Source: Amoebophrya sp. A120
Lineage: Eukaryota; Protista; Dinoflagellata
NCBI GenBank assembly: GCA_905178155.1
Contig: CAJINV010000005.1
Location: 6,041,754-6,105,753, forward strand
Direction: 5' to 3'
DNA length: 64,000 bases
Shown here piece by piece: positions 1 through 63,148 of the stretch (positions are counted from its first letter, which is position 1; every line of letters begins with the position of its first letter). Position numbers and translations under genes: made by a program. Under the pieces are notes generated by a model. The model was given only the letters and a program-made list of their open reading frames with translations, was not told where the DNA came from and made no database searches.

Positions 1-3000
1 GGTTGCGGACAGACCGGCAGTGCGCGTAGAGCTGGAATAAAGAGGCCTGAGACTGCTTTGCGGTTGAAACCGGCGCGGATCGATAAGTTGAGCTGGAAGT
101 AGAGGAGGATGGCAAATTACTTTGACGGCCAGCAGGTCGTTGGGAAGTAGTATCCTGTGCAAAAGTATCGTACTCGTACTAATTGCAGCCATGCATGACA
201 GATCTATTTTGTAAGGGAAAACAGCATTACAAATTGCATTTTTGTTCTTGAGAAACAGAAAATTTGTCATGCAGTTTATACTAGTACGATGCTTTTGCAC
301 AGGATAAGTAGATTTTGTTGCCGATTTGCTCTTCCGACTACTTATGGGAGTGTCAGGATCGAAATCGTCAGAGTTGAAATAGTTTGTCATGCATAAAACC
401 GATACCAGTTGGAAGCCCACTTACCGAGCGGCGCATGACAAATTTTGGAAGCACCCGAATCCAATTTGTCATGCTGTTTCGGCGCAGAGGACTGCTTTTG
501 TCATGCTCCTTTAGCATCTCTATCCCAAACCCTAGATAGGCTCACAATCTGCCTCACTTGCCATCTTACCAAGAGAGGCACTTCATGATCATGCCTTGCA
601 TTTTATGCATGACAAAGTATTTCAACTTTGTCGATTTCAAACCTGACGCTTCCATACTACTTGCCTTCGAAATATTTCCGCCGCCAAAGGCAGTTGTTCC
701 CCCGGTCGTGTTCAGCGACAAATTTTCTTTCAACAAAACCGCATCCTCCAGCAACTCCAACGTATCGCAACTATTCCGGTCCCCCTCAATCTGCAGTAAC
801 CGGTGGGAAACGTACCCGCCCCGCTGGATGAAATAATTGATTCTCCGGTTCACAAACGCCGGCGTCCGCAAGAGCGCTCTCTCGCTCCACAATGCGCCGT
901 GGATGTTCGGCGTGTTCTCAGCAGTTGCTGACGTGGAGATGTCGCCTTGTAAACCAGGCTGGGAAGAAGAAGAGGACCCAGACAAAGAGTTCGTCGTGGA
1001 AAAGTAGTTGTAATTTGGAAAGAACCTCGCGGTGAGATTTTTACAATGCGGACACTGGCCGTTTTGCAGCTGGAGTTGCAAAGCCTGAGACCACGCAGCT
1101 GTAGAATTGTTTGTCGTATTCGTGTTCTTACTCACTGGTAGTTGACCATTTTGCTGCATTACCTGAGGCGTTGAGATCATAGATTGTTTGTTCATGATGT
1201 TGTCATTTTTCACCATCATCGAAGCACCAGACGTGAAATTATGATCCTCTTGCAGCTGCGGGGTGCTTGCGAAATTCTCCACCAATTCGTCGCCCGCAAA
1301 ATTGTTCTGGGTTGGTGTCGCCGAAAAATAGTTGATATTCGGCCTGTCGTCACTCAGATTTGTAAAGCCCGAAGCTGCACCTCCAGACCTAGGAACTTCA
1401 TTCCGATGCTGGCCCTCGACGTGATTTTCGTGCTGAAACGCCAACGCTGCCGCGAGAGCCTCTGGGTCATCAGCCGAGTAGGATCGTCGGGGATCCACCG
1501 GAGGAGCGAAGATTGGTCTGTCAACATTATCCGGATCAATTGCACTTGCGCCGCTCAAAGTGGCCGTAATTTCCTCTTCCAAAATGCTGGAGAGCAGCTC
1601 TTGCTCCACCGCCTCACCCTCGGCCGCGAAATGACCGGCGACAGGGCGGTGGTCCCGCTTGGAGTTGTTTCCACTCCGACTCGTCATGTTGGAGACAGAA
1701 GCCCCATTCATTCTGGTAGTCGTGTCACTTCCTCCAGCACCACGGCTAAATACGGACGGACTGGGGGTTGGCAGGACTGATCCTTTCGGTGCAGTGCTGC
1801 GCAGACGAGGATCAACTTCTTCGCGTCTTGTTGTACTGTCTATGTCCACATCGTCGCTGCTGTGCGTGTTTTTCCCTTGTATTCGCTTACTTACAAACTT
1901 CTTTGCGGACGATGGAGCATTGTCCAGTCTACTTCTCGCCTCGGGCCTATTTTCCGTCGCCGGAGAGAAGGACTTCTGGTGTCGAAACAAATTTGCGCGG
2001 TCGCGGTGGGACCGACACTCGAAGATTTGCAGCTGGAGGTAGCCTGGCTGGTCGTGTACAACACTAGTGTTCCCGTTTACTGCCGTTGTTCCCCAGGTAG
2101 CAGCGGCGCCGACGCCCGTCGCTCTTGTTGGGTGTTCGGAGATCTGCGAGCTGCTTTTCTGATTCTGTACTAACTGTGGCTCGTCAAAGTTGTAAGTCGA
2201 TCCAATACTCGCCGCACTACCCTTCTGCTTCAGCCGCGTCAACATCGATAAACCTCCTGCCCCATAATTGCCACCAGAGCCACTCGCAGCTCCTGAAGTT
2301 GTTGAAGCTGTCGTTGTTCTTGCCACAACCGATTGGAAATGCCGCCCGCAATGGAAATGCTTCGCGTCCTTCTGCACGTAAACCTTCGCACCAGCTGTGT
2401 TCACCGCCTGCATTGAGAAAATCTGAATCCCCAGCCGCTCCAAATCCACATCTTCGTGCTGCTTGGTTTCCCGAGTTTCATGCACATCTTTGGGAAACAG
2501 AATGATTTCCCGCCGGTGCAAGTTCTTCGCCGGATTTTTCACCACAGCTTCAGCATTTGCGCCTGTCTTCGAAGAACTGGTAGCAGTACCACCTTGATTT
2601 GCGTTGTGCTTTGGAGAAAGAATCGTCGGATCAAGTTTGATCCCAGCATTGGTGCTCGCTCGCTTCATCTTTCCACCCGACGATGTTGCAGCGCTCGCAG
2701 TATTTCCACTGGAAATAGATGAGGTCACAACATCAGCTGACGTCGAGGAAGCGGATAAATCATTCCCGTCCTCTAATCGCATGTACAGCGGCTCGTTGGT
2801 TAAATTTTCGATTTTAATCAAGTGATCATCCCCCACACGAGACGAGAAGTCCGGTTTTTGCAGTCTTATCTGCAACGCGTTGTGGTTATACGGCAGTCCG
2901 TATCAACTGTAAAAATGTCTGGGTCTGGAAGGTTCTGACAGTTGTCACGCACGTTTTGCATGAGCCATGATGTCCGTGATGCATACCCTAGCAATACAGA

Positions 3001-6000
3001 TTTTTTGAGGGCTTCTTGATGCCTATTCCGCATGACAAATGCCTTCTCAGCGTAGCAAAAATTGCATTCCCTTTGCTACTCATGCAATGCAGATTTTCTT
3101 GGAATCCAAATGCAGCATCACAAGTCGCATTCTTCCAGACCCAGACATTTTTGCACTTGATAGTCCGCTTTTCAGCTGCATATCCTTCGAGATCTCAACC
3201 CGAATCATGTCCGCTGGCGGAAAGATCTTTTTCCTGCGTTGTGGTCTACTACCTTTCGCGCCTGTGGCGGCTTCGTAACCTGCTGCAGCTACACCGCCTT
3301 TGTTCACGGAAGCGCGCGCTTTGATGCCGTCTGTACCTCCGGCGGACCCAGCTCCACTTTGATGTTCGTTCTGCTGCATCAGCTGCGTCACAGACATCCT
3401 CTCCCCAATAGTCGCTGGAAGCAGGCCCGCACTGTAACTGCGGTCACTGCTGGCGAGCACGTTGGTGTCTCGGGTGCCGATGCTGTCTGTGATAGTACTA
3501 CTTCTGTTTTGATGTAGCAGCTTCGTTTGTTCGTGAAAGGCTACATGCTTACTATTTTCCTTTTCGCTCTCGCTTACGCTTTTGTCCCCCAATTGCCTAC
3601 TTTCTTCCTGCTCCGAGTCGTCAAATTTCAGCTGCCTTGGCTGAACTAACGACGAGTCCTTGGATTTGTTATCATCCAGGCTGACGCTGACAGAAACACT
3701 GTTATCATCGTTGGCGGAGGAGGGCTGAGCAGGCTCGTCGTGCAGTTCGTGATCATCCCGTGACGCTTTCGGTTTGCTCCTTGGTCTCTCTGGCGGGAAC
3801 AAAACGTTGTCGTGATGTCGAGTAGTACGACCCGAACCTGGTTTGTCGTTGTGATCATGGAGATGTGCTTCAGTTTCTCTGTCTCTCCCTGACAAATTAT
3901 ACATGGAGCTGCTCAGAGACTGCTTTGTGGGCTGCTGGGTTCGTCGCCCGACACTGCTTTGCGGACTGCTGGGTCTTTGTCTTTCCTCGGCGACACCCCC
4001 GTCGGAGGAAGAGGAGGCTGATTTGCCGCTGCTGCTTGAAGAAGACAATACAGCGTCGTCATCGGACAAAACACTACTCGCTGTTGAGTCGGTGTCAGAA
4101 GTACTACTGCTGCTTTCCGATGAATCCGAAGAGGAAGTGGAGAAAGACGATTTTGATCCACCTCCACGCTTGGCAACTTTCTCCTTTTCGTCTCGAGCAA
4201 ATTTATCCCTTCTAGATGTACTGCCCGTGCTCCCTCCCAGCTGCAATCCCAGTATCAAGTTTCTGTTCGACTCTCCCGCGGACAAGCAGCAAGACCAGGG
4301 GACGTGGAAAGTTCTCTTCAACTCGTGATCATCCAAACCAGCTGGGAGTAACCGAAACATGTCCGTCTCCCACCACAAGCTCGGATCAGACTTGTGACTC
4401 ACCCGCAGTCGACAAAGCGGTGCCTCGTGGATGTCGCAGTCGGCCGCTGGGTTCACCGCGGTGGGGGTCTGATAGGGTAGAGGGATCGGCAACTCGTTTT
4501 GCTTCTTGTTCAACACACGTTTGAGGAGATTTTGCTGATTCAAGTGCTGCTCCTGATAGTGCTGATCGACAGCAGCTGAATGATGCTGCGCGGAAAGAGG
4601 CTGCTGGTGGGCAGAATGAGGACCTGGCGTCTGTGGTGCGCCGCCGTCGTGATTGTTGTGGTGGTGGTCGTGATGTAGCCGAATCTGCATGCTGTTCTGC
4701 GGGTGGTTTATTTGTTGCTGCGACATAATACCGCCCGCCCCGGCGTATCCAGCGATACCGACTGCGCCTCCAGAACCCTGTGCAATTCCTCCGCCACTTC
4801 CTCCCAGCGCTCTCTGAATTGCCGCAGCGGTAGCACCCGTCGCGCCAAATTGGTTCGCCGCAGATGAAGAACTACCTCCAGGAGCAGTGTGCTTCACGAA
4901 GAACAGACAGACGACCAAATCCGGATCGATCTCCTGAGAAATCGTAAACCGATCCACCACCGTCAACACCTTCGTCATTACCAAAGGCGCGGGGTGGTAC
5001 CGCACGCATAACCCTAGCCAAATCGACGGCTGCTCCTGCAGTTTTTGCTTGAGCAGTAGTTTCGCGATCAAGTCGTCTGTTTGCTTAATTTGAAGTTCAT
5101 GCTTCTCCTTCTCTTTGAGCTGTAATTGTTGCAATTTTGCCGCCTCTACTGGGTTTGATGTTGTACCACCTCCGCCCTGACCACTGTTGGTGAGAAGAGA
5201 TGATTCGTGCTGCGCGGAAGATACGAAAGCTTGTCCTGCTCGTTCGACCGCACTGCTACTTACAGAATTGAGTATCATCGACGCCCTATCTTGGCTCGAC
5301 GACGCAGCGAATCTTGGTGGCACCACTACACCGGTGCTACTGCTGCGGTTGGGATTGAGCGTTGCACTTCCTCTTGCTGCGGCAGAAAGATCATCACTGG
5401 ATGACCGGTAGGCATTTTTTGCCGTCTCCACCATCGAGGCTGACATTTTTGGACACCAGAACGCCCGGGCGACGCTCGGGGTCACGACCAGAGACTCTAT
5501 CGGGTGAATCGCGAGTATGAATTTTCCCTCTGGCAAGCACCAAGTGACCAGGGCGAAAACTCGCGTTTCTATCCTTTTCGTTGAAGACGCAGGTGAGTCG
5601 GTTCTTTTGTGATGCGCCGCCCCTGCTGGTAGTGCTGCTTTAATTCCATCATGTGCTTCAACATTTTTATCGTCGCGCTCTCTCCTCGCCGCATGAGCAC
5701 TGTTTCGGGTTAAAATGTCCAGTCTTTCCGGTTCGAAATTGCTATCTTCATCAACCAACACTTCGTCCACATCCCCCGTGATTCGCGGCTCAAAAACTGC
5801 CTTCGGAACCGAAGGTCGGTAGAAAGCGACTTCTTCATCGATCATGTCATTTTCAAAAACCGCCGAATTATCCGCTGGCGTCGGCCCGTCTCGCGGCGTG
5901 TCAAATTCCAACTCGTCTTGTTTCATCCTGTGCAAAAGTATCGTACTCGTTGTAATTGCAGTCACGCATTACAAATTTTTTTCTTAGGGTAAATCCGCAT

Positions 6001-9000
6001 GACAAATTTTATTTCTACTCACGCTGGGGAGATTTCTTGTAATGCTTTTATACGAGTACGATACTTTTGGTGCAGTTCATATGTTTCGAGATTTCCTGCG
6101 AGGCTGCGGACTCCATCTGCTGCTTGCTACTGTCGTTGTCGTCGCTTGAAGACGAAGTGTTCTTATCGCGATGGCGATCTTTCTTGTTATCAGCGGTTGT
6201 CACCGACATAACGGGCATAGACGCAATGTAAACTTCGGACACCAAACCAGTACACCCTGGCTCCCGAAGGAAATCGACCGGGTCTGCGGGGTCGTGGATC
6301 AATCTGTGCTGCTCTTCCAGCTGATTTTCCGTGATGAATAGCCGTTTCAGTCCGGTGGGTGGCAAATAATCACCACGATGATGATAATTCATTCCCAGCA
6401 CACCGCCAACAGTTGTGTTGTGAACAAAACCCTGAAAATCTTTTTCCACTTTCCACACTTCCCCATGGTGCGTTGTACTAGCAAGGAGTAGAAACTCCCG
6501 AGCTTCTGCTAATTCCTCCTCAATGTCAAACTCCTCGTCGAAACCCGGTAAATCCGCGGCTTCTTTCTGGTTTTTCTGCTCCACATCCTTCGGCGAAATG
6601 GGAATGGAGGACTCTGCGTGAGGAACTTGTTGGTCTAGGAGTACGTCCACAGCTTTGATGTTATTGCCCGTAGTTGTGGTTGCAGTAGCAGTGGTCTTGG
6701 GTAGTGTCGTTTCCGTTTCTCCATCCGAGGAACTCCGACCTGCTTTGTAGTTCCTTGCTGCGCGGGTCGTTCTCATCTCCCTCGAGCTTCTTGTCGTACT
6801 CGTGATATCGTCACTCAATTTATACACAATGTGCTCGCGCCGGTCCTGCGCAATAGACTCCAGAAGGACTACTGGCTTGTTGAGGAGCATCGGCAAATCT
6901 TGATACGTGGGCGCAGTAGGACCAGCTTCGGGCAGCTCTTCGCCTGGGGTTTTGTGGTGATGGTGATGATGTTCGTGATGGTGGTGGCCATGACCACCAT
7001 GATGACCGCGGTGTTCTGCATTCTCTTGCTGCAAAAGCAGTTCCATACCAATCGCGTCTCGTCTGTCCTTTACGCTTTCCGTGTGGTACAGAAAGTTCGC
7101 AGCGGCGATTAGCGGTAGGAAGAGATTTTGCTCCATCTTGGTCGTCAAGTTCACCCGTAGCGGTCGGCGGTCTCGTTGCAAATCACCCAGGTCTTTCACG
7201 GAAGGGAGCTGCTTCAAAAAATTATTATCCGCCCTTTCCGTCGGATAAAGGACCGCGTGGGTTTCCTTTTCATCTTTATTTTCAGAAGTGCTTCTGTCTT
7301 TCGCCAGACCCCGGGTTTTGGTTTCTGCCATCTCGGCGCCGAGAAGTTTCGCGTTTGTTTTAGCCCTGGGTATGACAGCGGGGCGAGAGGAAGCGTTAGG
7401 AGGTGGACTTCCAGTTCCGGAGGCAAGATCCTGTTCTTTTCCTATTTTCTGCCGCCCGGGGAGGTCTTCGCTGATATCGAGATCTTCGAGCGGATTCTTG
7501 ACAGGAGCCTCTCTACTTTCTTGAGTTCGATACTCATTTTCTTTCCCATTCACTTCTACTGGGCTTGTAATTCCACTTGGACTCGGACTGACAACACTCG
7601 CTGTTTCCCCAGCGGGGGACGACAACGGCGAAGACAACTCATCCTCCACTACATCGACCACTGCCACCCCAGCTGTTTTCCTTGCCGGCGGTACAAAAGC
7701 ACCAGAAGCTGCGCCCGTCCGCTCATACGCCGCTGTCGCAGTAGCCGTAGCTTGCGCGGTTGACATACCCAACATCCGCAAATACGCACCGCTCTGCGCG
7801 ATCGTCCCCTGTGCCGTCTCCTGAATGTCATTCACGAGCGCTTTCACTTTCGACAAAACCTTCTTCGCTTTGGACTTCTTTTTCTTCACAGTCGTGACAT
7901 GCCCCAAAGTGACCCCCTGGGACCCGAGTTTAAACGTGTTGTAGCTATAGGAAGATTCCGCACCTCTTTTGCACACCAATCTGGAAAACGCGGGCAATGG
8001 CGTCGCGCTTTTGAAGCCGGATAAATGCACCGAAAGGTGCATCTTCGTCCGGTTTTCCAACAAAAACGGCGTGTAGAAGGTGATCCCGTACCTCGTAGCC
8101 TCGATTTCCATGTCCAAAGCCGGAACGGATTTGTGCAAGTGCCGGTGCAAGTAATGCGGTAAGTGATGGTACCGGTGCAGTTTCGCAGACAATTCCTGCA
8201 GAGACAAAAAAGCGCGAGACGGCCGGGCAGCGAAAATGCTTGGGAGGAACACTTTCGAGGCTACTTGTGGCGCCAACGGGGCTCTCGTCGCGCCGTAGAA
8301 ATGGTGGTCGGGGACGAAATGCCTGGAGGTAGTGATTGTAATGTCATCGTTTTCTGGGGATTTGAAATTGTCAACCGTCGCAGCCCCGGAGAAGAGATCA
8401 GCGATCAGAATTTCTTCGCACTCGGTCCAGATGGTGGTGGACGTTTTTGACGTGCTGTTCCTGTTCTTCCCTTTGCTAGCGGTGCCATCGCTACTGGAAG
8501 ATTTGTTTTTTCGCTGCACATCATCTTCACTTTGTTTCTGTGCCGCGTCATTTTCCTTTTCCTGTTCTTTATTCCTGTCCCGAAGCTCACTAGTGGAATT
8601 ATACCACTCGACGAAGACGGAGTCCCGACCCACGTGTCTCACGATCCCGGACCTTGTCGTGTGTAAAGTTTCGTGGTTCGGATTCAAATTTGGCTTGAGC
8701 ATCTGCAACTGCAGTGTCAGTGCGTCTTCGGAGTGGTGTGTTGCGTGATCATCTTTGGACGGCTTGCGAATAGCAGAAACTAGTTGTGTGGTGCTGGCGT
8801 AGTTTGGCTGCAGTGCTGTTGATCGCGCAGTGAAAGTGCTGCCTAAGAACCGTGTTGACCCTCCACCGCCTACCGTTTGGTGCGTCTGTCGCTGCAATTC
8901 CTCGAATTTCACCGAGGCAGATGTGGAGGTACTGCTGTTCCCAGCAAAAGTTGAAAATGCACCACTGGTCCCGCCCTGCAGTTGTGACTTAGTGCCTTGA

Positions 9001-12000
9001 CCAGTGCTATTATTTTCCACAACATCAGTGGTCACGGTCCTTTGCTCGAGCAGACACAACCCGGGCGCAAGCCGACTGTTCCTGTTGGCATCAAAGCCTC
9101 CTGAAAGTGCGGGAATGCTGTTTTGATACTGCACTTGCCCATCAAGAGTTGCATCGAAATCCCCTCCGCCGCCTGCATTGCCAGCCGCTTGCTGTTCTAG
9201 CAAAATCAGGTCGCGCATCCTATCCCCTGAAAATTAACCATTTCCATCCACTTTTTGCATGACAAACACAGATTTCACTTGACGCGTTTCGCATGACTAC
9301 TTGGATGGGAGTGGTTAATTTTCAGGGAATACATCCAGTTTGGCGAAAACAAGCTGCCGCAGTGCCAGGCATCCGACGGCGCGTAGACTTTCACGTACAA
9401 AAACCGTTTCGCAAACGGTAAATGCAGCGTCTCGTTCTCGGATAGAATGAACGCCGATACGTTCAGAACCTGTTCCAAAATCTCATGGTCCTTTTCCGCC
9501 TGAGACTTTTGGAATTTCAAATTTTCAGCCGCCACACCGAAGATTTTTCCAGCAGCTTTGGAGAAGAGGTGGGCAGAGGAGCTTTTTGTTCCACCTCCAC
9601 TTGATGTTCCTGCTACACCTATTTCAGAATCGCCTTGCGGCAGAGAATTCTTACCCGCGCCTCTCAGCGCAAGCACGTCGTCATCGAAGTAGTCGTCGTC
9701 GGAGGAAGTACTGAATTCATCCTCTTTATTCTCATTTAACATCAACTGCGGCCTTGTACTGGAACCGCCTGATAGTACCGCCGTGCTAGTATGAGCGCTG
9801 TCCGTGGATTTGCTGCCTGCGAAGGAAGCTAACTTCGAATTCGTCAAATTCAAACCACTGGAAATATTGCCCACCGCCTTGGCTCGGAGTTGGAGGAAGC
9901 GGCTCCGTTTGTGCTGGGTCTCGGCGCTCGTACCAGCAGCGAATGCGGGTCTACTGTTCCTGGATCTACTCTTTTCTGGGTGGAGGTCTCTATTTCGCTC
10001 GCCAGGGATTGCTAAGTTATCGCCGGAAGTGTCGTAGTCGTCTATGTCAATGATCGCGGCAGCATTACTCAAGTCGTCATTGCTGCCATCGCCGCCGGGG
10101 CTCGTCGGGACAATCCCCGCTGCTTCCGAATCATCTCCGATGTTGAAACCCCTCGTCGTGCCAGTCCTACTGGAACTAGAAAGAGCACTTGCGCTGGCTG
10201 AACCCGCGTAGTGCTGCTCTCGACCCCCTCCCATAAGCGATTGCTGACTAGAAGCGTGCTTCGTTACTCTCCCACCGCCGAACAAATCGGCCGAAACTTC
10301 GTGCGTGGTTGCTTGGTTTTGCTCGGATGAAAGTTGGTTCACCACACGGTCGCCCACGATAGCGGAAGCCATGTCGCTGAAATAGGACCCGAAATGCTCC
10401 GCACGAAAGCGCTGGGAAGAGGTCGTGGAGGCGAAAAGGCGTAGATATGAGGTTTCTTCGGACTCCCAAATGACTCGGTGGTGCACAAAGCTATGATCTT
10501 TTGATGAGTCGCTAGTTGTATTTTTACCATGCTGCCCGCTTGTAGAAGTGCCAGTCTCATTTGCACTACTTCCACTCGCGGCTTGTCCGGTCGTGGTCGC
10601 AGGATTGTTCTCTTTCGCCGGACCAACCACCCCACCGCCTCCCATTCTCTCCCACGAGAAGCACACCCGGTCAATCTTCATCTTGTCTAAACTGCCGTGG
10701 TGACCAGTGCTGTTCTCGAAATTTTTTGCGAAAAAGACCTTTTCCAGCACGTCCGCAGGAATTTTGTTTTTCTCTCTATCCACCGCACCCGGAATCGGCG
10801 ATAATTGCACCACAATTGGAAACGGTAGCTTATTCTTCAACTCCGTGACCCCATTCACATGGACAATCCGCATTTGCGCAATCCCATCTGGAATCCCAGA
10901 CGGAGCGCTGCTCTTCCGGCTAAAGAGATTCGCGCCAGTTTCGAAGTTGTACGAGGCTCTTTTAGGATTATTCTTGCCAGTGCCTCCACCAGTCGCAGAT
11001 GCTCCACTTCCACCTCCATGTCGGTTCAGAACATTTCCAGGTACGTACGCCACGTCGGTACATTCAATATTGCCGACGAGCTTGAGAAATCGAGAAAACA
11101 GAATCGTGAAATTCTTCTTGTCGTCCTGCAGGTTCGTCTCTGCGGCTTTTGCGTTCAACAACTTCCCCAGATCCGTAAAGGGAAGCTCCTCGTAATACAC
11201 CTGTTCATAGCTGCCAAAAATTTTCGTGCGGATAAAACACCGCCTCTCCTTCCGAGCAAACCAGTGAAGCGGGATGTGGGCGTAGCTGTAAGGAGCAACG
11301 TGTAATGTCCAGAGCTTGCTGTCCCACGGGTCTTTGGTTTGATACCGATCTTCGGGTAGAAATTCTTCGGCAGCCGCAGCCTTCTCCTGTTTTATTTTGC
11401 TTTGTAGTCTTATTCCCGCATCTTTTTTACGAGTTGCGCTACTGCCCGGGCTTGTCTGCGGCGAGCTGGTGCCTCCTGCAGGCTTCGCTTGCACCACCTT
11501 CGACGCTGCTGTAGGCGAAGCACCAGCATCTTTGCCGCTATCCCCTGCACCTCCTTTCAGACTGGAAGGAGATGTCGCGCTTGCTGGGCTTTGGGCGTCC
11601 TGCTTCTGCTGTTCCTGGTCTGCAGCACCGCTACTATTTGCGGTGCCGTTGGTGGTTGATGTCGTTGCCCCACCAGTCACGTTCACCAGCTCTGTCCCGG
11701 CTGCCAGAACTAGTTCCGCTAACTGCGTCAGAGCGCTGGGCGCCGGGTGGGGTTCTATCCGCACCTGAAACGGGACTCCGGTGTGGTTGTAAATCATTAC
11801 CGTTGAAGTGATACGCATCGCGACAGTGGTTTTTGTGGTTGGCAGAGTTGTGGAGTTAGAACTGCTCGACGTCGTCCCAGCCAGCATCTTGCTGTTTCTT
11901 CCGTCAGCAAGAACTCTTTCGGTCTGTTCCTCGCTTCTGACACTGGTCGCTTTACTGTAGATCGAGGACTTCGCCGAGAGAAATCTACCACTTTTGTTCT

Positions 12001-15000
12001 GTCTTTGCAGTACTCCTTCCGGCGGACTGCTGCTTGTTCTGTCGATGTCCTCAATGGCGAGCATTCTCGAAGTTACCGGGAGAACACCAGATAAACCCGG
12101 GTGGAATTGTTGATGACAAAGTCCCGCTGCTTGTACCAGAACGACAGGACCGAGGTCCGCGAGAGTGTAAGCCCTTGGGCAGTGGTAATTCAACCTCCCC
12201 AATTGCATGCTAGGTTTGCACTGCAACCCGCCAATCTTGCTGATCGAGATAAACTCCTGCTCATTAACCGTTGGTGACGTTGCTTGGAAAAACAGCGTCG
12301 TCAGCGGCTGCTCGTTTTCATGCTGGTGCTGCTGTCTGCTTTTGCGGTTGTAGTAGCGCGGCCTGCTGTGCAAAGCGGTAGTGCTTCGCAGATTTCTGGT
12401 GGTTCGGCGAGCTGGCATGAAACCCGAGGGGCCAGTCGTTTTAGTTTTCCTTTGTCGAGAGGCGGAGGCCGTTTCTAGCGCTTTTCCTGTTTTGTTCGCA
12501 GTTCCTGTGACATCTGCTGCAGTCTCGCTTCGTGATTTTTCCGCCGCAGCCTCTGCTTTCGATTTCTCCCCCGGTGTAGCAGCAGCTGTAGCAGGATCCG
12601 CTGCAGGAGCCGTCTGCTTAGAAGCTTGTTCTGATGTTTTGTTCTGATGTTCATTGCCAGGGGGCATGTCAATCACGACATAATCGCCTTGCTCCTTTCC
12701 CTCACCGCCCCCGCCAGGGCTGTTTTCGACTTCCTCTTTGATTTTCGCGAGAGAAGTTCGCCTCCTCTTCCCAACAGCAGCCGGGGATTGCGTTTTATTC
12801 ACCGTAGTTCGTCCTACGTGTGGAGGCACAAAAATCCCGCCGACCTTCTTCCCAATGGCGAAAATTCGTCTTCTCGGCGTGCTAAACATCCTGCGCCACC
12901 GGTCCTCTTGAGTGCGAGTTCGAATCCCGCGAGTGGACACCGCCGCAGCGCCGAAGGTCGAAGATGCAGTATTGTTCAGATGAGCAGATGGGCGAAAGGC
13001 CGCAGTTCGAGGCAACAGCCTCGTCCTTCGCTTTCTAGATGTTTGGTCATGATCTTGCGCTCTGGTGATCATTTTACTCGATGCTGCCGAAGTAGAGCTG
13101 AGATCTATCCTCGCTCCGGACGAGCTTCGTGGGGGCAGTTTCTTCCCCATGACCGTAGCAGCCGATGTGTTTATGCTGCCTGTGGAAAACCTTCCCGGTA
13201 TTGTTCCAGCCCCCATCCCCATCTTGCTTCGGGTTCGACTCCCACTAGAACTCGCTGCTGTCCGGGCGTAATACGACTTTGCTACTGAAGAGGCAGCACC
13301 TGCGCGTGTTCTGTGAAGATCTGCTGAAGAAGAAGCCGCACCAGAAGTTGCAGCTCGTCCCGACGCTCCATCTATCCCACCAAACATCCGCTGCGCCTTG
13401 TGCAGTGCCCTGATATCGTCCAACAGCGAGTCAATCACACCAACACCGAGCGACAAGTCAAACTTCCCGTGCCGCCCAATTCGGTAGTGGGAAAACGTCT
13501 CGTCACTATTGAACCACTGAACGGAGCAAGTTCTAGAGTCTTTCCGAACCGCGACAACTTTGCCCTTTCCAAAAGTGTGCTGGTTTTCGTCCAGCTGCGT
13601 GTGGTCAAGGTTTTCAAAATCGTCCAGAAAATTCCAACTGTTCGTAGTGTTCCGGCCAGAACCCAAGCGACTGCTGGGCCGGAGGTACGTAAAGGGGCGC
13701 TGCGTAGTTGGTCTTCGTCCCCCTGCTGTGGATGCGCGGGGCAAAAAAGTTGTGGACGAACCTACTGGCCTCCTGCCGCTGTTGCCGTAGATACTTTTCG
13801 AGGACCCGGCTCCTGGAAACAAAGCTGTAGTTGCACGCCCTGTAGTTGACGGCGCTCGTTCCGTGATGCCGATGCTGTATTGTGACTTTAAAAATTCGTC
13901 TGGGGAAACAAACGTGATATCCTCATTTCCCCAGCACCAATCAGAGTTCGAGAGTTTCCCCTCGCTTGTCATCCCACTCACCGCTCGCTGCACGATCAAG
14001 CCAACTTTGCAGTTGTGAACGGTGACTAGATCTTTGTGCAGCGCGACGTCCCCAATCTGCATCAGCTCGAAGCCCTTTTTGAGCTGCGGGAAGTACTGCG
14101 GGTCTTCCGTAGCGATGGTTAAGTGTTGCAGGTTTCTTCTCCTCTTGTACTTGAAAACCGTTCTGTACAGCGGTATAGAAGTTTCTGGCAGTACTGACTG
14201 TCGTGCTGCACCATCTGCTGGAGGATTCCTGCTCAGGCTGCCGCCCTTGATCTCGAAGGTAGAACCTGCTATTGTTGTCCTTTTCGCAGCAGCTGGGAGT
14301 ATCGATTTCCTAAAAGCGTTCGCAGACTGTTTTCTGCCAAGAAGACCACCACTACTACTTCCAGCTACAAGTACACCCGACGTCGCACCAACACTTTGGC
14401 TCCTAGATGAACTGTTGTAGCTCGTCGTGGGCCCAGAGGTGCTGCCTCCAAATGCCCGCGCCGCTCGGTTCAACGAAGCCGCACGTCTTATGTTCGAGAA
14501 AATGTTCTCTGTCGCAGACGTGAGTTTCTTCGCTGCCCGGCCCTGCTTCGACCACGATAGAGGCTGGTGTTTCACTTCCATCGAAGTACTTTTACCTGTG
14601 GCACCGACACCACTACTAAGCCGTGACAGCGCCTTTGTAGTCCATCCCTGCTCGATTTGCTGTTGCGTTGCGACCCGGAAATCGTAGAAATCTTTCTGTA
14701 GATTTCGATTCGACCCACCCTCTAGATCCGCGGCTTCGGTCAGCACGAGCTGCTTGTTCTCATCTTCTTCGAAACTATTCGTGGTGATATCAAATGTAAA
14801 AATGTCTCCTGGGTCTGGAAGAATGCAAGATCTGTCATGCATAATTCGCATGACCCATGATGCCTGTAATGCATGACCTAGCATCGTAGACTTTTAGAGG
14901 GCTTTCAGATGCACGCTCCGCATGAGAAATGCCCTGTCCGTGTAGCACAAATTGTGCCCCTCTTGCTGGTCATGCAATACAGTTTTTTTTGGAATTCAAA

Positions 15001-38050: not shown

Positions 38051-38803
38051 GGTAGGTTTGTGGCTTGTGGCTCGCCTACTCTACGAGGAAGGATGTGAAC
38101 TGTTCAAATGTCGGCAAAAAAGTCCTCCTCGTCCTGCAGACGAGGCAGTATGGTTATGACCTACATCCTGGGTGGGGGGTCGCCTATGGGAAAAGAAAGT
38201 ATGTAGTTGAGTCAAATCACCACATCAAAAATTTGACTCGTCGTCAGTGGTATCTGAAAAAATTTGACGCACGACGGCACAGCGGTATCTGAAACCAAGA
38301 AAACACACTTCCACATCTGGTACCAGACAGAGCGGAACAAACAAAAGCTACGATTTCAAACCGGGATTGGAAACGATCAAAGCGACTTGCTCAGTTGGCT
38401 CCACCACATCACGATCGTTCAACAAACGGAAAAAGTTTAAAGAGGAGCGAATCAGGAGACAAAGCAAGATGAGAACATGTTCGTGCCGTCGTGAAGGAAC
38501 TACCGTGCGTTTGTTCCTCGTTTGGTCCTCCGGCTTGCTGAGCTATTCTTGTTTTCGTGTTGGTTTTTTTTTAAAGATGCTGACACGTCAGGTGAAATCG
38601 TGTTCCTCCTCGTGGTTCTCCTGTAGATCCTCTACTTGTGTGATCAAACAGCGCGGGGTAAGTGCTTACTACTGCGAGCGAAAGGTAATTGCGTCCACCT
38701 GTGAAAGATGTTCCTCAAGATCTTCAGCAGGTATGCGTACAGGGTCTGTTCTTCCAGAGCACCTTCTACTTCTTCCGCTTCTTGTTGACCACCACCGCCA
38801 TTA

Positions 38804-44400: not shown

Positions 44401-44952
44401 AAGCCTCGCTTCCTGGTGCATCATGGGGTCCTGGTTCAACATCTCCATCCGCGAGGAGGTTGGTTTGATGGTCTCATCGTCATGATTTTCTCCTGTAGGA
44501 GAGGAAGCCGAGACCACCAAGCTATTCAGTTCTTGATACAGTGCCTTGATCAAACCGTGCAACGCGGTGTCGCGCTCCGCCTGCCTTTTTCTTCTGCTAG
44601 CTTCCGACGAAGATTGGCCTGCCTGCGCTTGTAGCATTCTCATCTGCTGCTGTTGCTGCATTCTCAAAAGAAACGCCGTCCAGGCTTTCTCCGCAGTGAG
44701 GGACAGGAGATGTTGTACAGCTTCTTCTTGGGACTCTACTTTCTTGATGTCAACAGGAGCTGCACCTTGCCTGCCAGCAGCAAAAGCTTGTGATGCTGCT
44801 AATGCAGCTCCTGTATTTCCAACTTGCGGAAAGTAGTGCCGCGCCCATTCTGGGTCCCGGGTGAGGTGTTGCCAGGCCAGGTGTTGTTTTTCCCAACCTT
44901 GCTTGCCAGAAGATGGCGCTGGGAGACTCGCGCTGTGAGCAGAGAGAGGCAT
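41450..44952 (-). CDS. Aspartyl/asparaginyl beta-hydroxylase domain-containing 2OG-Fe(II) oxygenase with a Cys-rich C-terminal extension
   Basis: LSAGSHILPHCAPNNLRLTCHLGIRVP...CRIRVG..WKESKCLLFDDSFEHEV..ARVVLLIRFWHP is the Asp_Arg_Hydrox pattern. Joined to ORF 41450-42217 by removing one introner. Start codon is tentative. Confidence 0.82.
42219..42470. mobile_element. Introner family C
   Basis: DR tcaaa; junction ACLKSNID. Confidence 0.9.
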
Positions 44953-53071: not shown

Positions 53072-54436
53072 GTTGTTGCAGTTGCTGTTAAACACAAACA
53101 GGAAGCAGGCGCTACTAGTACAACCGCTCATACTACAACTCTACTCTCTGGAAACATCATCATCGTCCCACGATCTATGCAGTGCCAGGCCTGGTATTAA
53201 GAACTGAAATACTTACAACAAGTGCACAGCAGGACTGTACATCTACCTGGTGAGGTCCTTTCCACGGCGCACAGGCCCCTGCAATGAAGAACGACCGGGC
53301 TGCGAGCGACATGTTGATGAAAGGTGGCTCAGGTCCTCTTGAGGGATGGCGAAAGAGACGAGGGGAGGGAAGAAAATGCGGTCTTTGTCTCGTTATCCAC
53401 TGGTTGTCTTATTTCAATTCAGTGAGCGTCTCTAACTACTTGGCTATCCAAACGGCGTCGAGTGATCTTCAACGTGTCGGGTACTGGAGTGGCAACTTAA
53501 AATTCCGGGGTTGTGTGGTAAGTACTGCAATAATTCCTGGGTAAAAAAAGCAAATCTACTTGATCTTCACTTTTATGTACCTCTACCTTTTTCGTGCGAT
53601 AAGAAAGATTCGGATTCCAGAACGAAAGCACGAAGTTGCAATAGTAGACGAGTTGTAAAACGGTTTTTTATTTGGACGAGTCCGACTTTGTTTGTCATGG
53701 AAACTAACGTTCGGTCCGCCAGGCAGACACGATGAACGAACGTGTTTGAAGATGCAGACGACACGGAAAACCGAAAAAAAAGGCTCAACTACAGCAGCAT
53801 AGAAACCACTCACGCATGAGAGATGAACGCCCGTAGCAGGCACTTCTACCGTGGTACGTGCTAGCTTGCTACCACAAAACCGACGGTGACAGAAACGAAA
53901 TCAGAGTTGTACCGAGTAAAGTTGGAACGAATTTCGTAAAAATAAACGAAACGAAAACGGTTCAACCGAGCGACGGAAACAAAACATAATTTTTATATGA
54001 GCACAAACAAAATAAAGCTCAGCGGAGCCATCCGGAGGATGAAAGGCTGAGGCTTACGTGTTTATCACACAAATCGAGGACGTCGGGACGAAGGCAGAAA
54101 TTTTTTTGACTCAATTCGAATTGAACGTGTTGGTGTTCATCGACGTCAGACTTCTATCTTCGATTGTTCGGAAAAAATGTAAGTAGTTTGGTTTTGCATT
54201 GATTTCATGGAGCGTTCTTGTGCTGCGCTCAGCAAACAGGAGCTGCAAGGAGAAACAAATACCCCTTGTTCTCCCTCGCCGCTGCTACTACTTCTGATCT
54301 CACGTATTCCCTGAAAATGAAGCATCCCCATCCAATTCTTGCATGTTTTGCATGACAAAGAAATTGGATGTTGGGGATGGTAAATTTATAGGGAATATGA
54401 TCACGCCGCCGTCTCCCCCTCTAAAATTTCCACGGC
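52670..54436. repeat. Segmental duplication copy 2
   Basis: Paralogous to 49615-51356. Confidence 0.85.
54305..54397. mobile_element. Introner family D inserted at the stop codon
   Basis: tattccctgaaaat...gggaata; DR tcacg contains the minus-strand TGA; absent from the paralogous site at about 51320. Confidence 0.85.
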
Positions 54437-57400
54437 ATTTTTCAGCCCCTCAATCTCCTCCTCCCGCCGTTTCTGCCGTTCCTCAAACGAATCCGCCTTG
54501 GTTTCACACTCCTCCTTAATTTTCGCCACGTATTCCAAAGCCGCGTCCTCTATCCAGGAGAAAACACCCATCCCCATCCACTTTGTCATGCAAAACATGC
54601 ATAAGCTCCAGTGTTTGCCATGCAAAAAATGGATGGGGATGGATGTTTTTCCTGGATATCCTCCGCCTTCACCGCATTGGTTTCATCCTGCTCCGCGTCG
54701 TTGATTCCCGTGTTTAACTGTTCAATTTCTCCCTGGTAACCCTTAATCGTCTGCTTCGTCGTGGCCATATGGAAGCGTCAGGATTGAAATCGTCAAAGTT
54801 GAAAATAAAATTTTTGTATTGCATAAAACGCAATGCACAAGGTGCCTGTCTTGCAAGGGTGGCAAGCGAGGCCGACTGTAAGCCTGTTTGGGGTCTGCGA
54901 TAGAGCTGCTAAAGCAGCATAACCAAAGCAGTCTTCTCTGTCCAAGCAGCATGACAAATTGGATTTCAATACTGCCAAAATTTGTCATGCGCCACTTGAA
55001 ACCTGTGTTCCAACTGGCATCCATCTGATGCATGGCAAATCATTTCAACTTTGACGATTTCAATCCTGACAGATCCATATGCCAGTTCGACTTTGTAATC
55101 CTGCGTTTTCTGTTCAAACTGGGACTTCAACGACTGTTCTAAATTCTGCACGTCAATTTTGGACTTCGCGAAATCCGCCTCCGCGGTTTCCAACAGCGCG
55201 ATCACCGAATCGGCCACGTTGGTGGTGGACACCCGGGACTTCGTACTCGTTTGCATCTCTGTGTTAGAACTTTCCTGCAACAACAAGGCCGATTCCGTCC
55301 CCTCGGCGAAGTACTCCTGCAAAACCTGGATCGCCTTCCCGCACGCTTCTTCGTTCGCCATCGCGGTCGCGATCTCCTCCTCGTTTTGCTTCTTGTTTTT
55401 CGCCCGCATGGCGGTGATTTGCTCGACATCCGCGTTGATCTCTTCGATTCTCTTCTCCAGTTGTGAAATCGTTTTCTCCAATTTCGGATGCATGGCAAAA
55501 GTACCGTACTCGTAGAGGTAGAAATCGCAGCTATCGTGCCCATGCATCACAGATCTATCTTGGTGCGCTAACCAGCATTACAAATTTCCTTTTTCATGCT
55601 GACCAAATTATTTGTGATGCGATTTCTACTAGTACGAAAAAAAAATTTTGGAAGGCATATTTCGTCTTGTCTGCCATCGCTTTCTCTTTCCGCATGGTGA
55701 GTTTCTCGCGTTCCTGCTGCTTTTTCTTCAAGTCCTTCTGCCCCTTCGCAGATTCTTTTTTGCAGTACGCGTTCTTGTCGTTTTCTTCCGCCGTTTATGA
55801 GAGTGCACAAGAACTCCCCCCCCCCTCGTCATTTGTCACGCAAAATACCAACCCCAAGCGCTGCTGCGTGGTACTGTTTGCATGACAGATTCCGGAAACC
55901 CAAACAGTACTACAATAGACGCATGAACTTGTCATGCACAGGCTCCACAGGTGGTGGGGGTGTCTGTATTGCTTTCCATACAATTACAAATGAGGAGGAG
56001 GGGGAGTTGCACACTGTCATACCATTTCTTTCTCTAATTTCCCAATCATGTTCGAGATCATCTGTTTCACCTTCCCAAACGGGTCCTCCGCAATGCGGAT
56101 GGAGAGCTGGTACAGTTGCGTTTGCGTTTGGCTCGTCTGTTTGCTACTATTTCCATTTGATGTTCTTCCGCTTTGCTCCTGCTGCAGCCACTTCGCAGCC
56201 AGTTTCTGCAGGTAGATGCTCGCAGCGGTCTGTCGCTGCAGCTGTTCGGTTGTCGACTTTATTTGCGCTTTGGTGCCGCTAGTGAGTTGTGTTCTTGCCT
56301 GGACTTGCAGGAAAGATGATACCGCAGCGCCTGCTAGTTGATGTCCATCAAGAACTACATCACTACTGCTTTCTTGCAAGAAATCGGGTGCATTCTGCAA
56401 AATCTCCATTGCCGTGTTGAGCGCCTTTAACTCCGCAGCGAAATCCTCCTGTTCCTCGTGGAACTCCTTCGTCGCAATCCGGCACTTATGCTGTGCAAAA
56501 GTATCGCACTCGTATAAATGGCGCAGATCTTGCATTACAAATTTCTTTATCAAGGCAAATCAGCATTACAAATTTTATTTCTCATGCTAAGGAAATTTGA
56601 ATGCATTTATACGAGTGCGATACTTTTGCAGTTCATAGCACTTCGTTTCCGAGTCCTCCAATGTTTTCAAACACTTTTTGACTTCCTCCTCCAACACCGC
56701 AATCTTCTCTTCTGCCTTCGCCAGCTTCTCTTCATTCGTCGCTTTTTTCGTTTTTTCCCGCTCGATCAGCGTTTTAAGATTTGCGACGTTGTTGGTTAGT
56801 TGTTGAATCAACAATTGCTTCTTCATCGAGTTCTCGGACCATTCCTGTTGCCTTTGGTTCTTACTCGCGATTTCGTCTTGCAGGAACTTTTCAAACAGGT
56901 CATATCACAGGAAAAAGTGTTACCGTTAACGGAATAGAATTTGTGATGCAGCAATGCATCACAAAACGTGTCAGAATTTGTCATGCGTGGCATGCATATT
57001 GGGCTACATTTGTGATGCCTGACTGCAATCTGTGACAACCGTTAACGTTAACACTTTTTCTTGCGATAAGTCAATGACCCCACTCATCCCGGAATCCGTG
57101 TCCAACCCTTTATCGACCGCTTGGGGCTGCTGGAGAAGTAAAGCGCTGTACTTTTCCTGTTTTTTCAGCGAAACAGACGATGCTTTGGTGATCGCGGAGA
57201 GAGCGACTTGGACCGAATCTAATGCTTTCTCCTGGAGTTGCAGGAAGGATTTCTTTTCGCCAGATCCCCCTTCTTCCTCCGACGTACTACTTTTCGCCTG
57301 CTTCATCGTCAGCGCCCGAATCGCCCGTCGCACCATGTCGATGGTTTGGCTGGACTCTTTGTCCAGTTTTGCAAACTCTTGCTTCTCTTCCCCGAAAAGC

Positions 57401-57843
57401 TGTTTCTCACTCGCGAGCTGCTTCGTCACCTGTTGTTCCTTTTCTGATGTTGCGGAGATCACACTTCCAGCCTTTTCCACTAGAGATGATGCCTCCTGCT
57501 TATCCGCTTTTTGGGTTTTCAAACTTGTCTTCAAAACAGCGAGCTCCTTCTGTTCCTGGATTTTCGTTTGTTCGCATTCCTGCTCGAGTTCATCCTGCTC
57601 TTCCCTGGCAATTTTCGACTCTTTCTCTGACTGCTGCCGCATACCTTCCAACATCTTGATAACAGGCGCAATGCTGCCGCCGGGCTTGGTGGTCAGGGTG
57701 GCTTCGGTTGTTTGAAGCAAGAAAACACATGTTGCCGCGGCCAAGGAGCAAGCAACGGAACCACGACGAAACGAAGACATGGCGGTCATCTTCTTTGCTC
57801 CTAATGCTGGCCGATTCATACCACCAGGTCGTGGGGGCGACAT
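54401..57843 (-). CDS. Secreted long coiled-coil protein of the dinoflagellate SFLQ-motif type (uncharacterised)
   Basis: Signal-like VACSLAAATCVFLLQTTEA; motifs IAPVIKMLEGM, SFLQ, DPFGKVKQMISNMIGKLEKE, KNAYCKKE, SFEERQKRREEEIEGLKNAVEILEG. Six introners removed in frame. Start Met uncertain (57843 to 57780). Confidence 0.8.
54551..54658. mobile_element. Introner family D
   Basis: DR tcctc; junction KAEDAAL. Confidence 0.9.
54768..55079. mobile_element. Introner family B
   Basis: DR ggcca/tgcca; junction VELATTK. Confidence 0.9.
55487..55659. mobile_element. Introner family A, degenerate
   Basis: Decayed TIRs (gatgc...gcata); DR tttcg; junction DKTKLEK. Confidence 0.82.
55796..56021. mobile_element. 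Introner family E
   Basis: DR ccgtt/ccatt; junction EKE(M/T)AEEN. Confidence 0.88.
56487..56637. mobile_element. Introner family A
   Basis: DR gcact; junction ETKCRIA. Confidence 0.9.
56903..57068. mobile_element. Introner family J
   Basis: TIR tatcacaggaaaaagtgttaccgttaacgg; DR ggtca/agtca; junction VIDLFEK. Confidence 0.88.
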
Positions 57844-59082: not shown

Positions 59083-60548
59083 TCATACCCAGTTATGCGC
59101 CCCGTCGTAGTCGATCGTCATTTCGCTTTCCTTCCTCCCCAGTAGCGTATTTGCGGCTTTGCTCTTGATGTAAAAGTAGATGAAGTCCGATAATATGAGC
59201 AGGTTAAAAAACTCCGTGGCAGTCGCCATGTTGTGGTTGTGTGGTGACCAGCCGTTCACCGTTGGGAAGAGCAGCCAGAAGGTAAGGGTGCAGAATTTTG
59301 CTATACCCTGGAACATGAGGAAGTCACCGAGAAGCACCGGAATCTTCTTTGTCTTGTACAGCATCAGGAGTTGGGGGAGGACGGACATAATCTGTAAGTG
59401 GTTTTTTGGTGGTGGGAATCATTCGGACTGAGAAACAGAAATTGAAAGCAGCAAAAACTTTTCGTTGTTGCATGATAGAAACAGACACAGATGAATGTCT
59501 TTTCAAAAAGGAAGTAGAGTATAAAAACTTCGTACATCTGCATGACAAAATCACTTCAAATTTCTCCGTATAAGTACTATACCTGAACAATCTCGCAAAT
59601 GCTGCAGAGCATGCACAAAGAGAACGCGAATGGCACGTCCCCATCCGCCGTGATGATCGAGCACCTCGTGACTGACCAGAAACAGGCCACAATCGCGGAA
59701 AACACCAGCAAGCCCCCGAACTGGACGAACAACGTGTCGTGGTATTGTTTGGGTAAAATCCGCTTCAGAAACGCCCGGCCGAAGACGTCATCCGCAAAAT
59801 CTTCTTTAATCGAATTACTGACACAATACAAAGCAACGGTGGTGACCACCCCCATAAACACCGCAAACCCGTCCACGATCAAGTAGATGAACGGGGGAAA
59901 AACCTCCGGGGAATAGTGGATCCCGAAAATGTGACTGCAGGAATGGAGACACCGGCCCGCGGCGAACCCGAGAAAAGACTGGAGGGACACACCCCTCGGC
60001 CCGCGTCGTTTTACCGAATGGAAGACGCAGTAGAAGGCGAAAAACCCGCAAACGTCGGAGACCAGGATGAGAAAGTCGAGGAAAAGGAGGCCGAAAAAGG
60101 ACGGTGGCGGCTCGTCTTCCTCCTCATGCTGCTGTTCTTGCTCCGCTGGCTTTTCTGATGTTGCTGGTGTTGCTTTGCCGAGAAGCTGATGCGCCTGGTA
60201 GAGTATCACATGCAAAAATGTCTGGATCTGGAAGATTGCGAGATTTGTCATGCTTGTTTGGCATGACAAAAAAGTTTGTGATGCGTGTCGAAGAAGAGAC
60301 ACTTCCGCCTGTCATGCAAAAACGCAGCTTCTCATGCGAAAAACGCAACACAAAGAACTGCAGATTTTTTTCATGCTTGGCTCTGCAGCATTACAGAGCA
60401 CTCACTATTTTTCCCAAGACAGCACTACAAGTTTCCAGACCCAGACATTTGTACAACCCATATAGAGGGTGATCAGGAGGGGGAGAACCCGCTGGGCGAG
60501 CCGCCTGCTCGTCGTGGCAGTAGAGATCATACTGCGGGGGGAGAGCAT
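59083..60548 (-). CDS. ERD2: ER lumen protein-retaining receptor (KDEL receptor/ERD2-like)
   Basis: Multi-TM protein with RGVSLQS, SVLPQLLML and LILSDFIYFYIK motifs; GT-AG intron 59392-59582; one introner. Confidence 0.85.
60204..60462. mobile_element. Introner family C
   Basis: DR tagag; junction ITLYQAH. Confidence 0.9.
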
Positions 60549-62868: not shown

Positions 62869-63148
62869 TCAAGATAGACACCTTGAGTGCACTATGAACT
62901 GCAAAAGTATCGCACTCGTATAAATGCATTAGCATTACAGATTTCCTCAGCATGAGAAACATAATTTGTCATGCTGTTTTACCGTGGGATGGAGATTTGT
63001 AATGCATAGCTGCAATGGGTACGAGTACGACACTTTTGCAGTTCATATGCACCACACCACTCCCGTGATCCTCGTATTCGTTCGGCCAAACGCACATCTT
63101 GGTGAAATTTGGCATGCCAGCCAGCACCGCAGCGCCCTTCCACACCAC
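62869..63148 (-). CDS. 3'-terminal coding segment of an actin-related protein (rest of gene upstream or off window)
   Basis: After a cag acceptor and removal of one introner: VVWKGAAVLAGMPNFTKMCVWPNEYEDHGSGVVHSRCLS*, resembling the actin C-terminus [37 protein letters not shown]. Confidence 0.8.
62893..63047. mobile_element. Introner family A
   Basis: tatgaactgcaaaag...cttttgcagttcata; DR tgcac; junction VVHSRC. Confidence 0.9.

Follow-up and report, generated by a model that had tools for sequence, protein, structure and literature searches.

Hairpin introners in the coding sequence of Amoebophrya sp. A120: conservation of their ends and a candidate cut register

Hairpin elements in the genes of the window

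The 64-kb stretch of Amoebophrya sp. A120 DNA analyzed here (the window) contains a giant gene that is open at the window edge, a U2B''/U1A-like gene, a coiled-coil gene, and several others (Table 1). Inserted in this DNA are 45 complete hairpin elements of 93-317 nt (median 210), which make up 15% of the window, and one fragment at 63882-63957. An earlier sequence-only reading had counted 46 elements. Its description of their anatomy was accurate: all element-bearing genes are on the minus strand and, read in the sense of the gene, 45/45 elements start with TAT and 42/45 end with ATA, while the 5-nt direct repeat (DR) flanking them is perfect in 37/45, carries one mismatch in 6/45, and is broken in two (49448 and 54305; elements are named by their first coordinate). 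TAT..ATA pairs spanning no more than 400 nt with an exact flanking 5-nt repeat numbered 34, versus 0-6 in third-order Markov shuffles (n = 20); the same pair search with an arm-similarity filter gave 39 versus 0-3 per shuffle. One of these 39, a 1155-nt pair at 57501-58655, is likely a chance match and was excluded; the set of 45 consists of the pair-search cases, one further element, and six more (plus the fragment) found by homology.

The elements fall into nine clusters and three singletons with a median nearest-copy identity of 0.81, and arm positions 11-14 are dominated by A. Their ends are paired in 43/45 predicted folds, and the fold z-scores have a median of -7.9 against a weak control of 10 mononucleotide shuffles per element. 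Coding spans, which account for 75% of the element-free sequence, house 43/45 elements (p = 0.0004). Terminal inverted repeats (TIRs), a target-site duplication (TSD) of fixed length, and the lack of coding capacity are all hallmarks of miniature inverted-repeat transposable elements (MITEs). Rfam returned no match at gathering score, and thus neither the conserved catalytic core of a self-splicing group I or II intron nor any known RNA family. An empty paralogous site near 51320 has a single copy of the repeat of element 54305; it is part of a local duplication in which 49700-51350 and 52700-54430 are alike, the coiled-coil gene's 3' end included. The ORF at 48712-49443 (minus strand) ends at TAT and is followed by element-like motifs (48500-48712), possibly an old, decayed element. 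The canonical intron at 59.5 kb was also considered as a decayed element, but this was dropped because its first AG yields a stop, the acceptor that keeps the frame being farther along.

This class of element is already known: those of the window are the introner elements of A120 (Farhat 2021, PMC7789003). They are A120's own, and not merely of the Amoebophrya type proposed from the sequence, because the host proteins are identical to A120-labelled records and the arms and repeats match. The published arms consist of TAT, seven variable bases, and an A-run of at least three A, with direct repeats of 3-5 nt (5 bp in the legend to Fig. S19); 29,850 introner elements make up 17% of the A120 genome, and neither their removal nor the position of their borders is explained there (PMC7789003). 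Like the window's elements, they are hairpins with 5-bp repeats that form families, lack a transposase, and have non-GT-AG junctions (PMC7789003). The window's elements share the arm form, the 5-nt repeat, the families, the absence from RNA (in one probable-RNA contig), the non-GT-AG borders, and the host proteins; there is no difference in kind, and the cut register and strand asymmetry described below are not reported in the text of PMC7789003. No report of either was found in the literature outside subscription journals, although the figures of PMC7789003 may show part of this. Among the A120 families of Gozashti et al. 2025 (PMC12130899) that were considered (19 of 58 rows), most are classed as TIR DNA elements, many of them with non-canonical ends. 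Introners of the related A25 likewise have inverted and direct repeats but differ in family, in length (mean of 120 nt for non-canonical introns), and in repeat geometry (PMC7789003).

Table 1. Genes, hairpin elements, and canonical introns of the window (DR, direct repeat; strand "." where none is assigned).
Feature	Position	Strand	Remarks
Giant gene	2..38053	-	about 10,600 codons, open at window edge; 28 elements and one canonical intron
Element	151..306	-	~150-nt family, perfect DR
Element	343..656	-	~310-nt family, perfect DR
Element	2901..3162	-	~260-nt family, perfect DR
Element	5924..6081	-	perfect DR, RNA-3' end ATG
Element	9221..9331	-	~110-nt family, perfect DR
Element	14788..15057	-	perfect DR
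Element	15110..15331	-	perfect DR
Element	16111..16418	-	perfect DR
Element	18039..18275	-	perfect DR
Element	21267..21524	-	perfect DR
Element	22642..22797	-	perfect DR
Element	24252..24401	-	perfect DR
Element	25198..25460	-	perfect DR
Element	25645..25953	-	perfect DR
Element	27292..27444	-	perfect DR
Element	29820..30029	-	~210-nt family, perfect DR
Element	30882..31030	-	perfect DR; one register allows GT-AG
Element	31143..31255	-	perfect DR
Element	31671..31879	-	perfect DR, RNA-3' end ACG
Element	32078..32234	-	perfect DR
Element	32338..32490	-	perfect DR; GT-AG in proposed register
Element	33354..33563	-	perfect DR
Element	34868..35173	-	perfect DR
Predicted canonical GT-AG intron	35988..36100	-	donor GTATAG; sequence prediction
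Element	36144..36407	-	perfect DR
Element	36473..36720	-	perfect DR
Element	36826..37012	-	DR mismatch at base 1 (synonymous)
Element	37345..37661	-	perfect DR
Element	37760..37911	-	perfect DR
U2B''/U1A-like two-RRM gene	38760..40581	-	P0001, 254 aa; four elements and one canonical intron
Canonical GT-AG intron	39041..39194	-	donor GTATTC; P0001; RNA contig record 9 piece ends at border
Element	39368..39655	-	DR mismatch at base 2; upstream-copy residue in annotated protein
Element	39694..39842	-	perfect DR
Element	39882..40031	-	perfect DR
Element	40224..40475	-	perfect DR
Element	42219..42470	-	perfect DR; in Asp/Asn beta-hydroxylase-domain gene (41453-44951)
Element	47504..47757	.	perfect DR; no confident coding frame
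Element	48964..49273	-	DR mismatch at base 1
Element	49448..49600	-	broken DR; removal putative
Element	54305..54397	-	short, directly past stop codon; DR offset 3 nt; kept in RNA contig
Coiled-coil gene	54401..57843	-	P0002, 758 aa; six elements; spliced RNA contig
Element	54551..54658	-	perfect DR; missing from RNA contig
Element	54768..55079	-	DR mismatch at base 5; RNA lacks upstream-copy base
Element	55487..55659	-	perfect DR, RNA-3' end ATC; nonetheless missing from RNA contig
Element	55796..56021	-	DR mismatch at base 3; upstream-copy base in RNA and annotated protein
Element	56487..56637	-	perfect DR
Element	56903..57068	-	DR mismatch at base 5 (synonymous)
Predicted canonical GT-AG intron	59392..59582	-	donor GTATAG; ER-lumen-receptor-like gene (Pfam); read by eye
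Element	60204..60462	-	perfect DR
Element	62893..63047	-	perfect DR; last codons of actin-like gene
Element fragment	63882..63957	.	~150-nt family, without ends

Evidence that elements are removed with one copy of the repeat

Deleting each element plus 5 nt, i.e., one copy of the repeat, gives 10,354 stop-free codons across 23 elements, compared with 1,872 for the unspliced sequence and 1,825-1,852 after frame-breaking deletions; five more elements and a predicted canonical intron carry the giant gene to 38053. Deletions of the element plus 2 nt or 8 nt likewise keep the frame (9,342 and 10,331 codons), and the ORF alone therefore fixes the length removed only modulo 3. The same model reproduces P0002 (six junctions) and, up to its canonical intron, P0001 (four junctions), so that the restoration of the ORF claimed by the sequence-only reading holds at 10/10 protein junctions. 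P0001 and P0002 are 100% identical to the window proteins and carry the NCBI label Amoebophrya sp. A120; the A25 orthologue P0003 aligns without gaps at 6/6 element junctions. The NCBI annotations were themselves built from alignments of transcripts and are thus no evidence apart from cDNA.

The RNA evidence is thin: of the 16 contig pieces listed, three belong to a single spliced contig and one to a second. The spliced contig, record 14 of run X5 (probable RNA, its type guessed by the tool), is 2586 nt long, unbroken, and has a depth of 158. Its gaps drop 409 and 430 nt, or 231+178 and 317+113, so that each gap equals a pair of element+5 units, and once all six elements are removed the contig begins 9 nt ahead of the ATG; four elements are thus missing by length arithmetic and six if the contig start is counted. 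Retention in transcripts had been named as the outcome that would tell against removal, and this contig lacks four elements at summed lengths of element+5 each; it does keep element 54305 (93 nt), which stands just past the stop codon and whose repeat is displaced by 3 nt. The raw RNA runs X6 and X7 left the window's genes uncovered. In X6 (a 2026 run), 89 raw RNA reads match one element arm (40444-40475) with different flanks; another sample therefore transcribes a retained copy of that family.

The possibility that the elements stay in the mRNA, with the junctions arising by template switching of the reverse transcriptase and the proteins by ribosomes hopping between matched codons, is very improbable. 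A hairpin with a direct repeat is a classic substrate for false introns, all of the RNA evidence is derived from cDNA, and a 5-nt repeat contains a whole codon in any frame. However, template switching should leave the bases of the downstream copy, whereas at repeat position 3 it is the upstream base that appears in the RNA; a single unbroken 2586-nt contig skips elements, and at least 23 hops in one protein are implausible.

Ordinary splicing at nearby frame-keeping GT/GC-AG sites is the least probable of the explanations considered. In sequence terms it is available, as in-frame pairs lie within 12 nt of 28/39 window junctions and of 131/202 junctions in a second assembly (described below). 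Yet 4/10 annotated junctions have no such pair, the lengths and boundaries in RNA equal element+5 and contradict it wherever RNA was seen, and 65% of the RNA-supported A120 introns are non-canonical (PMC7789003). Nor do the repeats supply a consistent GT or AG, as had been stated: a GT-AG reading inside the repeat is available to 2/45 elements, and G[TCA]-AG to 7/45.

The protein motifs said to be rejoined at the junctions fared unequally. The RRM of the U2B''/U1A-like gene was confirmed (E = 2.5e-18); this spliceosomal gene has four non-canonical elements, all within its first half. The actin-like match is weak, a 33-aa piece with a best E = 0.033, and element 62893 sits in its last codons. 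Upstream (5') of this last exon, a ~190-nt unit that contains tandem stops recurs in 63200-63900 in approximately four degenerate copies, on which TRF was silent. Chorein_N was not borne out: Pfam gave nothing for the three exon pieces concerned, and neither Chorein_N nor VPS13 was matched among 30 exon pieces, although the N-terminus of the giant protein looks VPS13/Chorein_N-like. The scanned exons of the giant gene had no curated-level Pfam match (weakly, MIB_HERC2, E = 8e-4), and no homologue was found among 2,633 candidates of 3,179-5,000 aa, a weak negative in that the protein is longer than that range.

Strand-specific conservation of the ends and proposed position of the cuts

A motif scan of metagenome contigs yielded at least 141 loci (L001-L141), all with the prefix JACKZZ01 and 490 kb when merged; all figures for this second assembly refer to loci among the matches listed. 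JACKZZ01, although filed as a metagenome, has the same element families at similar density and is an intron-rich eukaryote with a GC content of 49%. Each of the window's 45 elements has a relative in it (73-94% identity), and no gene sequence is common to both. Arm profiles blind to the first three bases and to the repeat identified 370 pairs, with 89 arms unpaired overall, and recovered 33/45 window elements exactly. Thirty of the 370 were dropped (weak arms, shifted ends, or a length of at least 480 nt), leaving 340, of which 202 are confidently coding, 86 lack an open frame, and 52 are ambiguous. The coding model, trained on JACKZZ01 loci, called the strand correctly for 39/39 window calls. 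At L001 (~300-1700), two segments with ABC-transporter-like motifs, membrane and nucleotide-binding, are adjacent on opposite strands, by either inversion or misassembly. A search of viral contigs gave no matches.

The asymmetry of the ends was first seen in three window copies and then counted in the second assembly. Among the 202 confident coding copies, the 5' TA was changed in none and the 3' TA in seven (p = 0.016); pooling these with 42 window copies gives 0 versus 10 of 244 (p = 0.002), which is not the constraint regardless of transcription direction that characterizes a ciliate-type internal eliminated sequence (IES). By base, the pooled changes are T1 0, A2 0, and T3 2 (both to C) at the 5' end, and A(-3) 0, T(-2) 3, and A(-1) 8 at the 3' end, whereas arm positions 4-30 have no 5'/3' asymmetry. 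The largest family is inserted both ways (32 in the same and 38 in the opposite orientation), and the asymmetry therefore follows transcription and not the element. The bases opposite T1 and A2 vary, so selection acts on the identity of the base and not on pairing of the termini.

Conservation that is specific to a strand points to recognition on RNA and not on DNA; a DNA excisase should hold the two ends under equal constraint. Programmed DNA excision was one of two mechanisms envisaged by the sequence-only reading; we regard it, in a form like that of ciliate IESs and in a life stage outside the sequenced sample, as highly unlikely. The MITE-like anatomy and target duplication are compatible with it, as are the TA-containing ends, which recall those of Paramecium IESs, and the sequenced runs X1-X4 are one sample. 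Against this, the conservation tracks the transcribed strand despite insertion in both orientations (32/38), and DNA contigs of X1 run into or across elements at a single-copy depth of 40-47 with 0-1 differences (in one sample, and contigs drop rare forms). In addition, none of the long copies listed has a transposase ORF.

Copies of 481-972 nt have unrelated interiors, intact ends, and no long ORF, and it is thus the ends that define the unit, as the sequence-only reading had supposed. Interiors are unrelated between families and interchangeable, extending to foreign DNA of up to 972 nt. In merged L061-L063 (6023-6995 and 10925-11421) and in L039 (3861-4492), elements of 496-972 nt have captured foreign DNA or simple repeats in their interiors, while their arms and direct repeats are intact. 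No transposase was found among the eight long pairs listed in the 490 kb plus the window (six regions read); pairs of 4.2 kb, 6.2 kb, and 1,031 nt were rejected as long elements because they are probably chance pairings across host exons.

Where the two copies of a repeat differ, the mRNA base shows which copy stays. In the RNA, the base of the upstream copy is present at position 3 (element 55796) but not at position 5 (54768); tie-breaking in read placement was checked on the canonical intron in X5 record 9. The annotated proteins have upstream-copy residues at positions 2 and 3, and at L029, where the two copies differ at position 4, the A25 orthologue (P0005) shows the F of the upstream copy and not V. 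By codon frequency, the upstream copy is the commoner at positions 1-3 in 23/33 cases (p = 0.035) and at position 4 in 7/10 (not significant). Pfam and Protein Data Bank (PDB) comparisons of other mismatched repeats were uninformative on the register. These few cases point to a cut after repeat base 4, i.e., N/UAY…AUA-NNNN/, where the slash marks the cut. The main A25 junctions are TT-xx and A25 arms start TTA (PMC7789003), which would also give U at +2 and A at +3. The NT-xx junction classes of Table S4 fit the register but possibly reflect aligner preference, and they were not counted as support.

Removal at the RNA level guided by the repeat, with the joint anywhere within the 5 nt (homology-directed, in variable register), is improbable, even though 156/202 coding copies have a perfect repeat and the displaced-repeat element 54305 is retained in RNA. 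The 38 repeat mismatches (38/1,150 sites) are spread evenly over positions 1-5, and 19/38 are synonymous versus 26% expected if neutral, which again suits guidance by the repeat. However, single mismatches are no rarer in coding copies (32/188) than in those without an open frame (10/82), six copies with no more than 2/5 matches stay in frame when element+5 is deleted (including one located in a probable GT-AG intron), and every observed RNA or protein case fits one register. The mismatch pattern fits young insertions with a drifting intronic copy; a partial requirement for identity is possible. At L019 (~1930-2272), an intact element with a broken repeat lies inside a probable GT-AG intron, possibly a step from a non-canonical to a canonical intron.

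The bases preserved at the 5' end resemble a splice donor. A gene parser given only GT and AG, with no splice-site model, predicted 153 introns, of which 47 were set aside for element motifs. Among the remaining predicted canonical donors, GTAT accounts for 18/106 and GTAY for 29/106, versus 4.9% and 11.5% of interior GT (p = 7e-6 for GTAY), and all three canonical introns of the window begin GTAT. The element's fixed 5' bases and the sole tolerated variant (TAC) thus appear, in sequence, to match donor positions +2 to +4 of the lineage's predicted canonical introns. The borders otherwise depart from a U2 intron: G at +1 (repeat base 5) is present in 64/202, the flank rate, and is not fixed as in a GT/GC donor; AG at the 3' end in the proposed register is present in 19/202 against a background of 6.9%, again with no excess; and GT-AG is possible in any register for only 11/202. 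The statement that standard splice sites do not define excision is therefore right in that GT-AG is unused, but it needs qualification in that the 5' end appears to supply donor bases +2 to +4.

How the elements may be removed, and what this would mean

We put at about even the chances that a relaxed spliceosome removes the elements from RNA, measuring from the ends of the hairpin. A DNA transposase, of which none was found, would insert the MITE and duplicate 5 nt. The 5' cut would fall 1 nt ahead of TAT, making N/UAY a donor equivalent to the lineage's GUAY with a free first base, and the 3' cut would fall 4 nt past ATA, without AG, placed by its distance from the hairpin. A relaxed U2/U5/U6 machine would accept N/UAY as the donor and set the acceptor by stem distance, and one whole repeat would therefore be removed whatever its sequence. 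More speculatively, an A that never varies, seven bases upstream of the 3' cut, could serve as branch point. In A120, U2, U4, U5, and U6 and 83/89 spliceosomal proteins were found, but the U1 small nuclear RNA (snRNA) was found in neither A25 nor A120 (PMC7789003); another Amoebophrya, which has canonical introns, does have U1 (PMC12005148).

Precedents for introns of this origin exist. Those of Fritillaria borealis are also MITE-derived, with TIR and TSD, and are reportedly removed by an adapted U2 spliceosome, but their borders prefer AG-AC and AG-AT (PMC12621601, PMC11282704), whereas the window's elements hold only +2U and +3A constant and leave the 3' dinucleotide unconstrained. In Polarella and Symbiodinium, TIR and TSD elements likewise form introns in dinoflagellate coding sequence, but with GH and AG taken from the TSD or from the element itself (bioRxiv 10.1101/2020.10.14.339549); here, no register showed enrichment for G or AG.

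The strongest competitor, though still unlikely, is a separate non-spliceosomal machine (an endonuclease and ligase, or a dedicated ribonucleoprotein) that uses the same ruler at the RNA level, as proposed for euglenids. Nonconventional euglenid introns are also MITE-like, with hairpin-joined ends and arbitrary borders (Nomura et al. 2025, PMC12501133; PMC11282704), and are excised as circles (PMC11282704). Their signature, N3-CDG...CHG-N5-6/R, likewise has unpaired spacers that are longer at the 3' (N5-6) than at the 5' end (N3) (PMC12501133). Such a machine would need neither G+1 nor AG, the arms pair in 43/45 folds, and the missing U1 is in keeping with it. However, euglenids are an independent lineage in which pairing is required (PMC12501133), whereas in the window's elements N/UAY and a 3' A are conserved and terminal pairing is dispensable (3' ATC, ACA, and ACG; 5' TAC). 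The arms have no CAG/CTG in their consensus and there is no purine excess at the first 3'-exon base. Moreover, the 5' bases and the tolerated TAC match canonical GTAT/GTAC donors, a match that a separate machine would not require.

Several observations weigh against the relaxed-spliceosome proposal or the data behind it. When all three terminal bases of the 202 second-assembly copies are counted, the asymmetry is 2 versus 7 (p = 0.18), and orienting 87 further copies by locus vote gives 2 versus 10 of 289 (p = 0.039); judged by eye, one of the two 5' exceptions reflects a wrong strand vote, and the other, altered at both ends, lacks an open frame. For the register, position 5 was read from a single RNA boundary and position 4 from a single orthologue residue, with one contig overall, and the position-5 codon test leans the other way, the upstream copy being the commoner in 7/11 (not significant). 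The predicted canonical introns are noisy, coming from a GT-AG gene parser working on sequence only, and have no excess of A at -7, contrary to the branch-point step. A pure ruler does not predict the retention of element 54305, albeit this is short and in the 3' UTR. Because of the GT/GC-AG pairs near 131/202 junctions, canonical sites are excluded only where RNA or annotation was seen. Finally, splicing that dispenses with G+1 and AG departs widely from the established chemistry of the spliceosome.

The elements themselves are not new; what is new here is the strand asymmetry, the candidate cut register, the donor likeness, and the lack of selection for G or AG. These may add up, at somewhat less than even likelihood, to a third splicing code in Amoebophrya, one that treats any sequence between hairpin arms as an intron: only N/UAY and one A of the 3' arm would be read, the cuts would fall exactly 1 nt before and 4 nt after the stem, and no G, AG, or U1 would be used. 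A fixed register with three constrained bases leads to point predictions, namely, the repeat base found in mRNA, the branch site, and changes in U6 and U5. If true, the known chemistry of splicing would expand to include a spliceosome that works without G+1, AG, and U1, and the code would make every insertion of a transposon with a 5-bp TSD scar-free in either orientation. It would also explain how transposons could cheaply saturate coding DNA, with 28 insertions in one gene and four in the U2B''/U1A-like gene.

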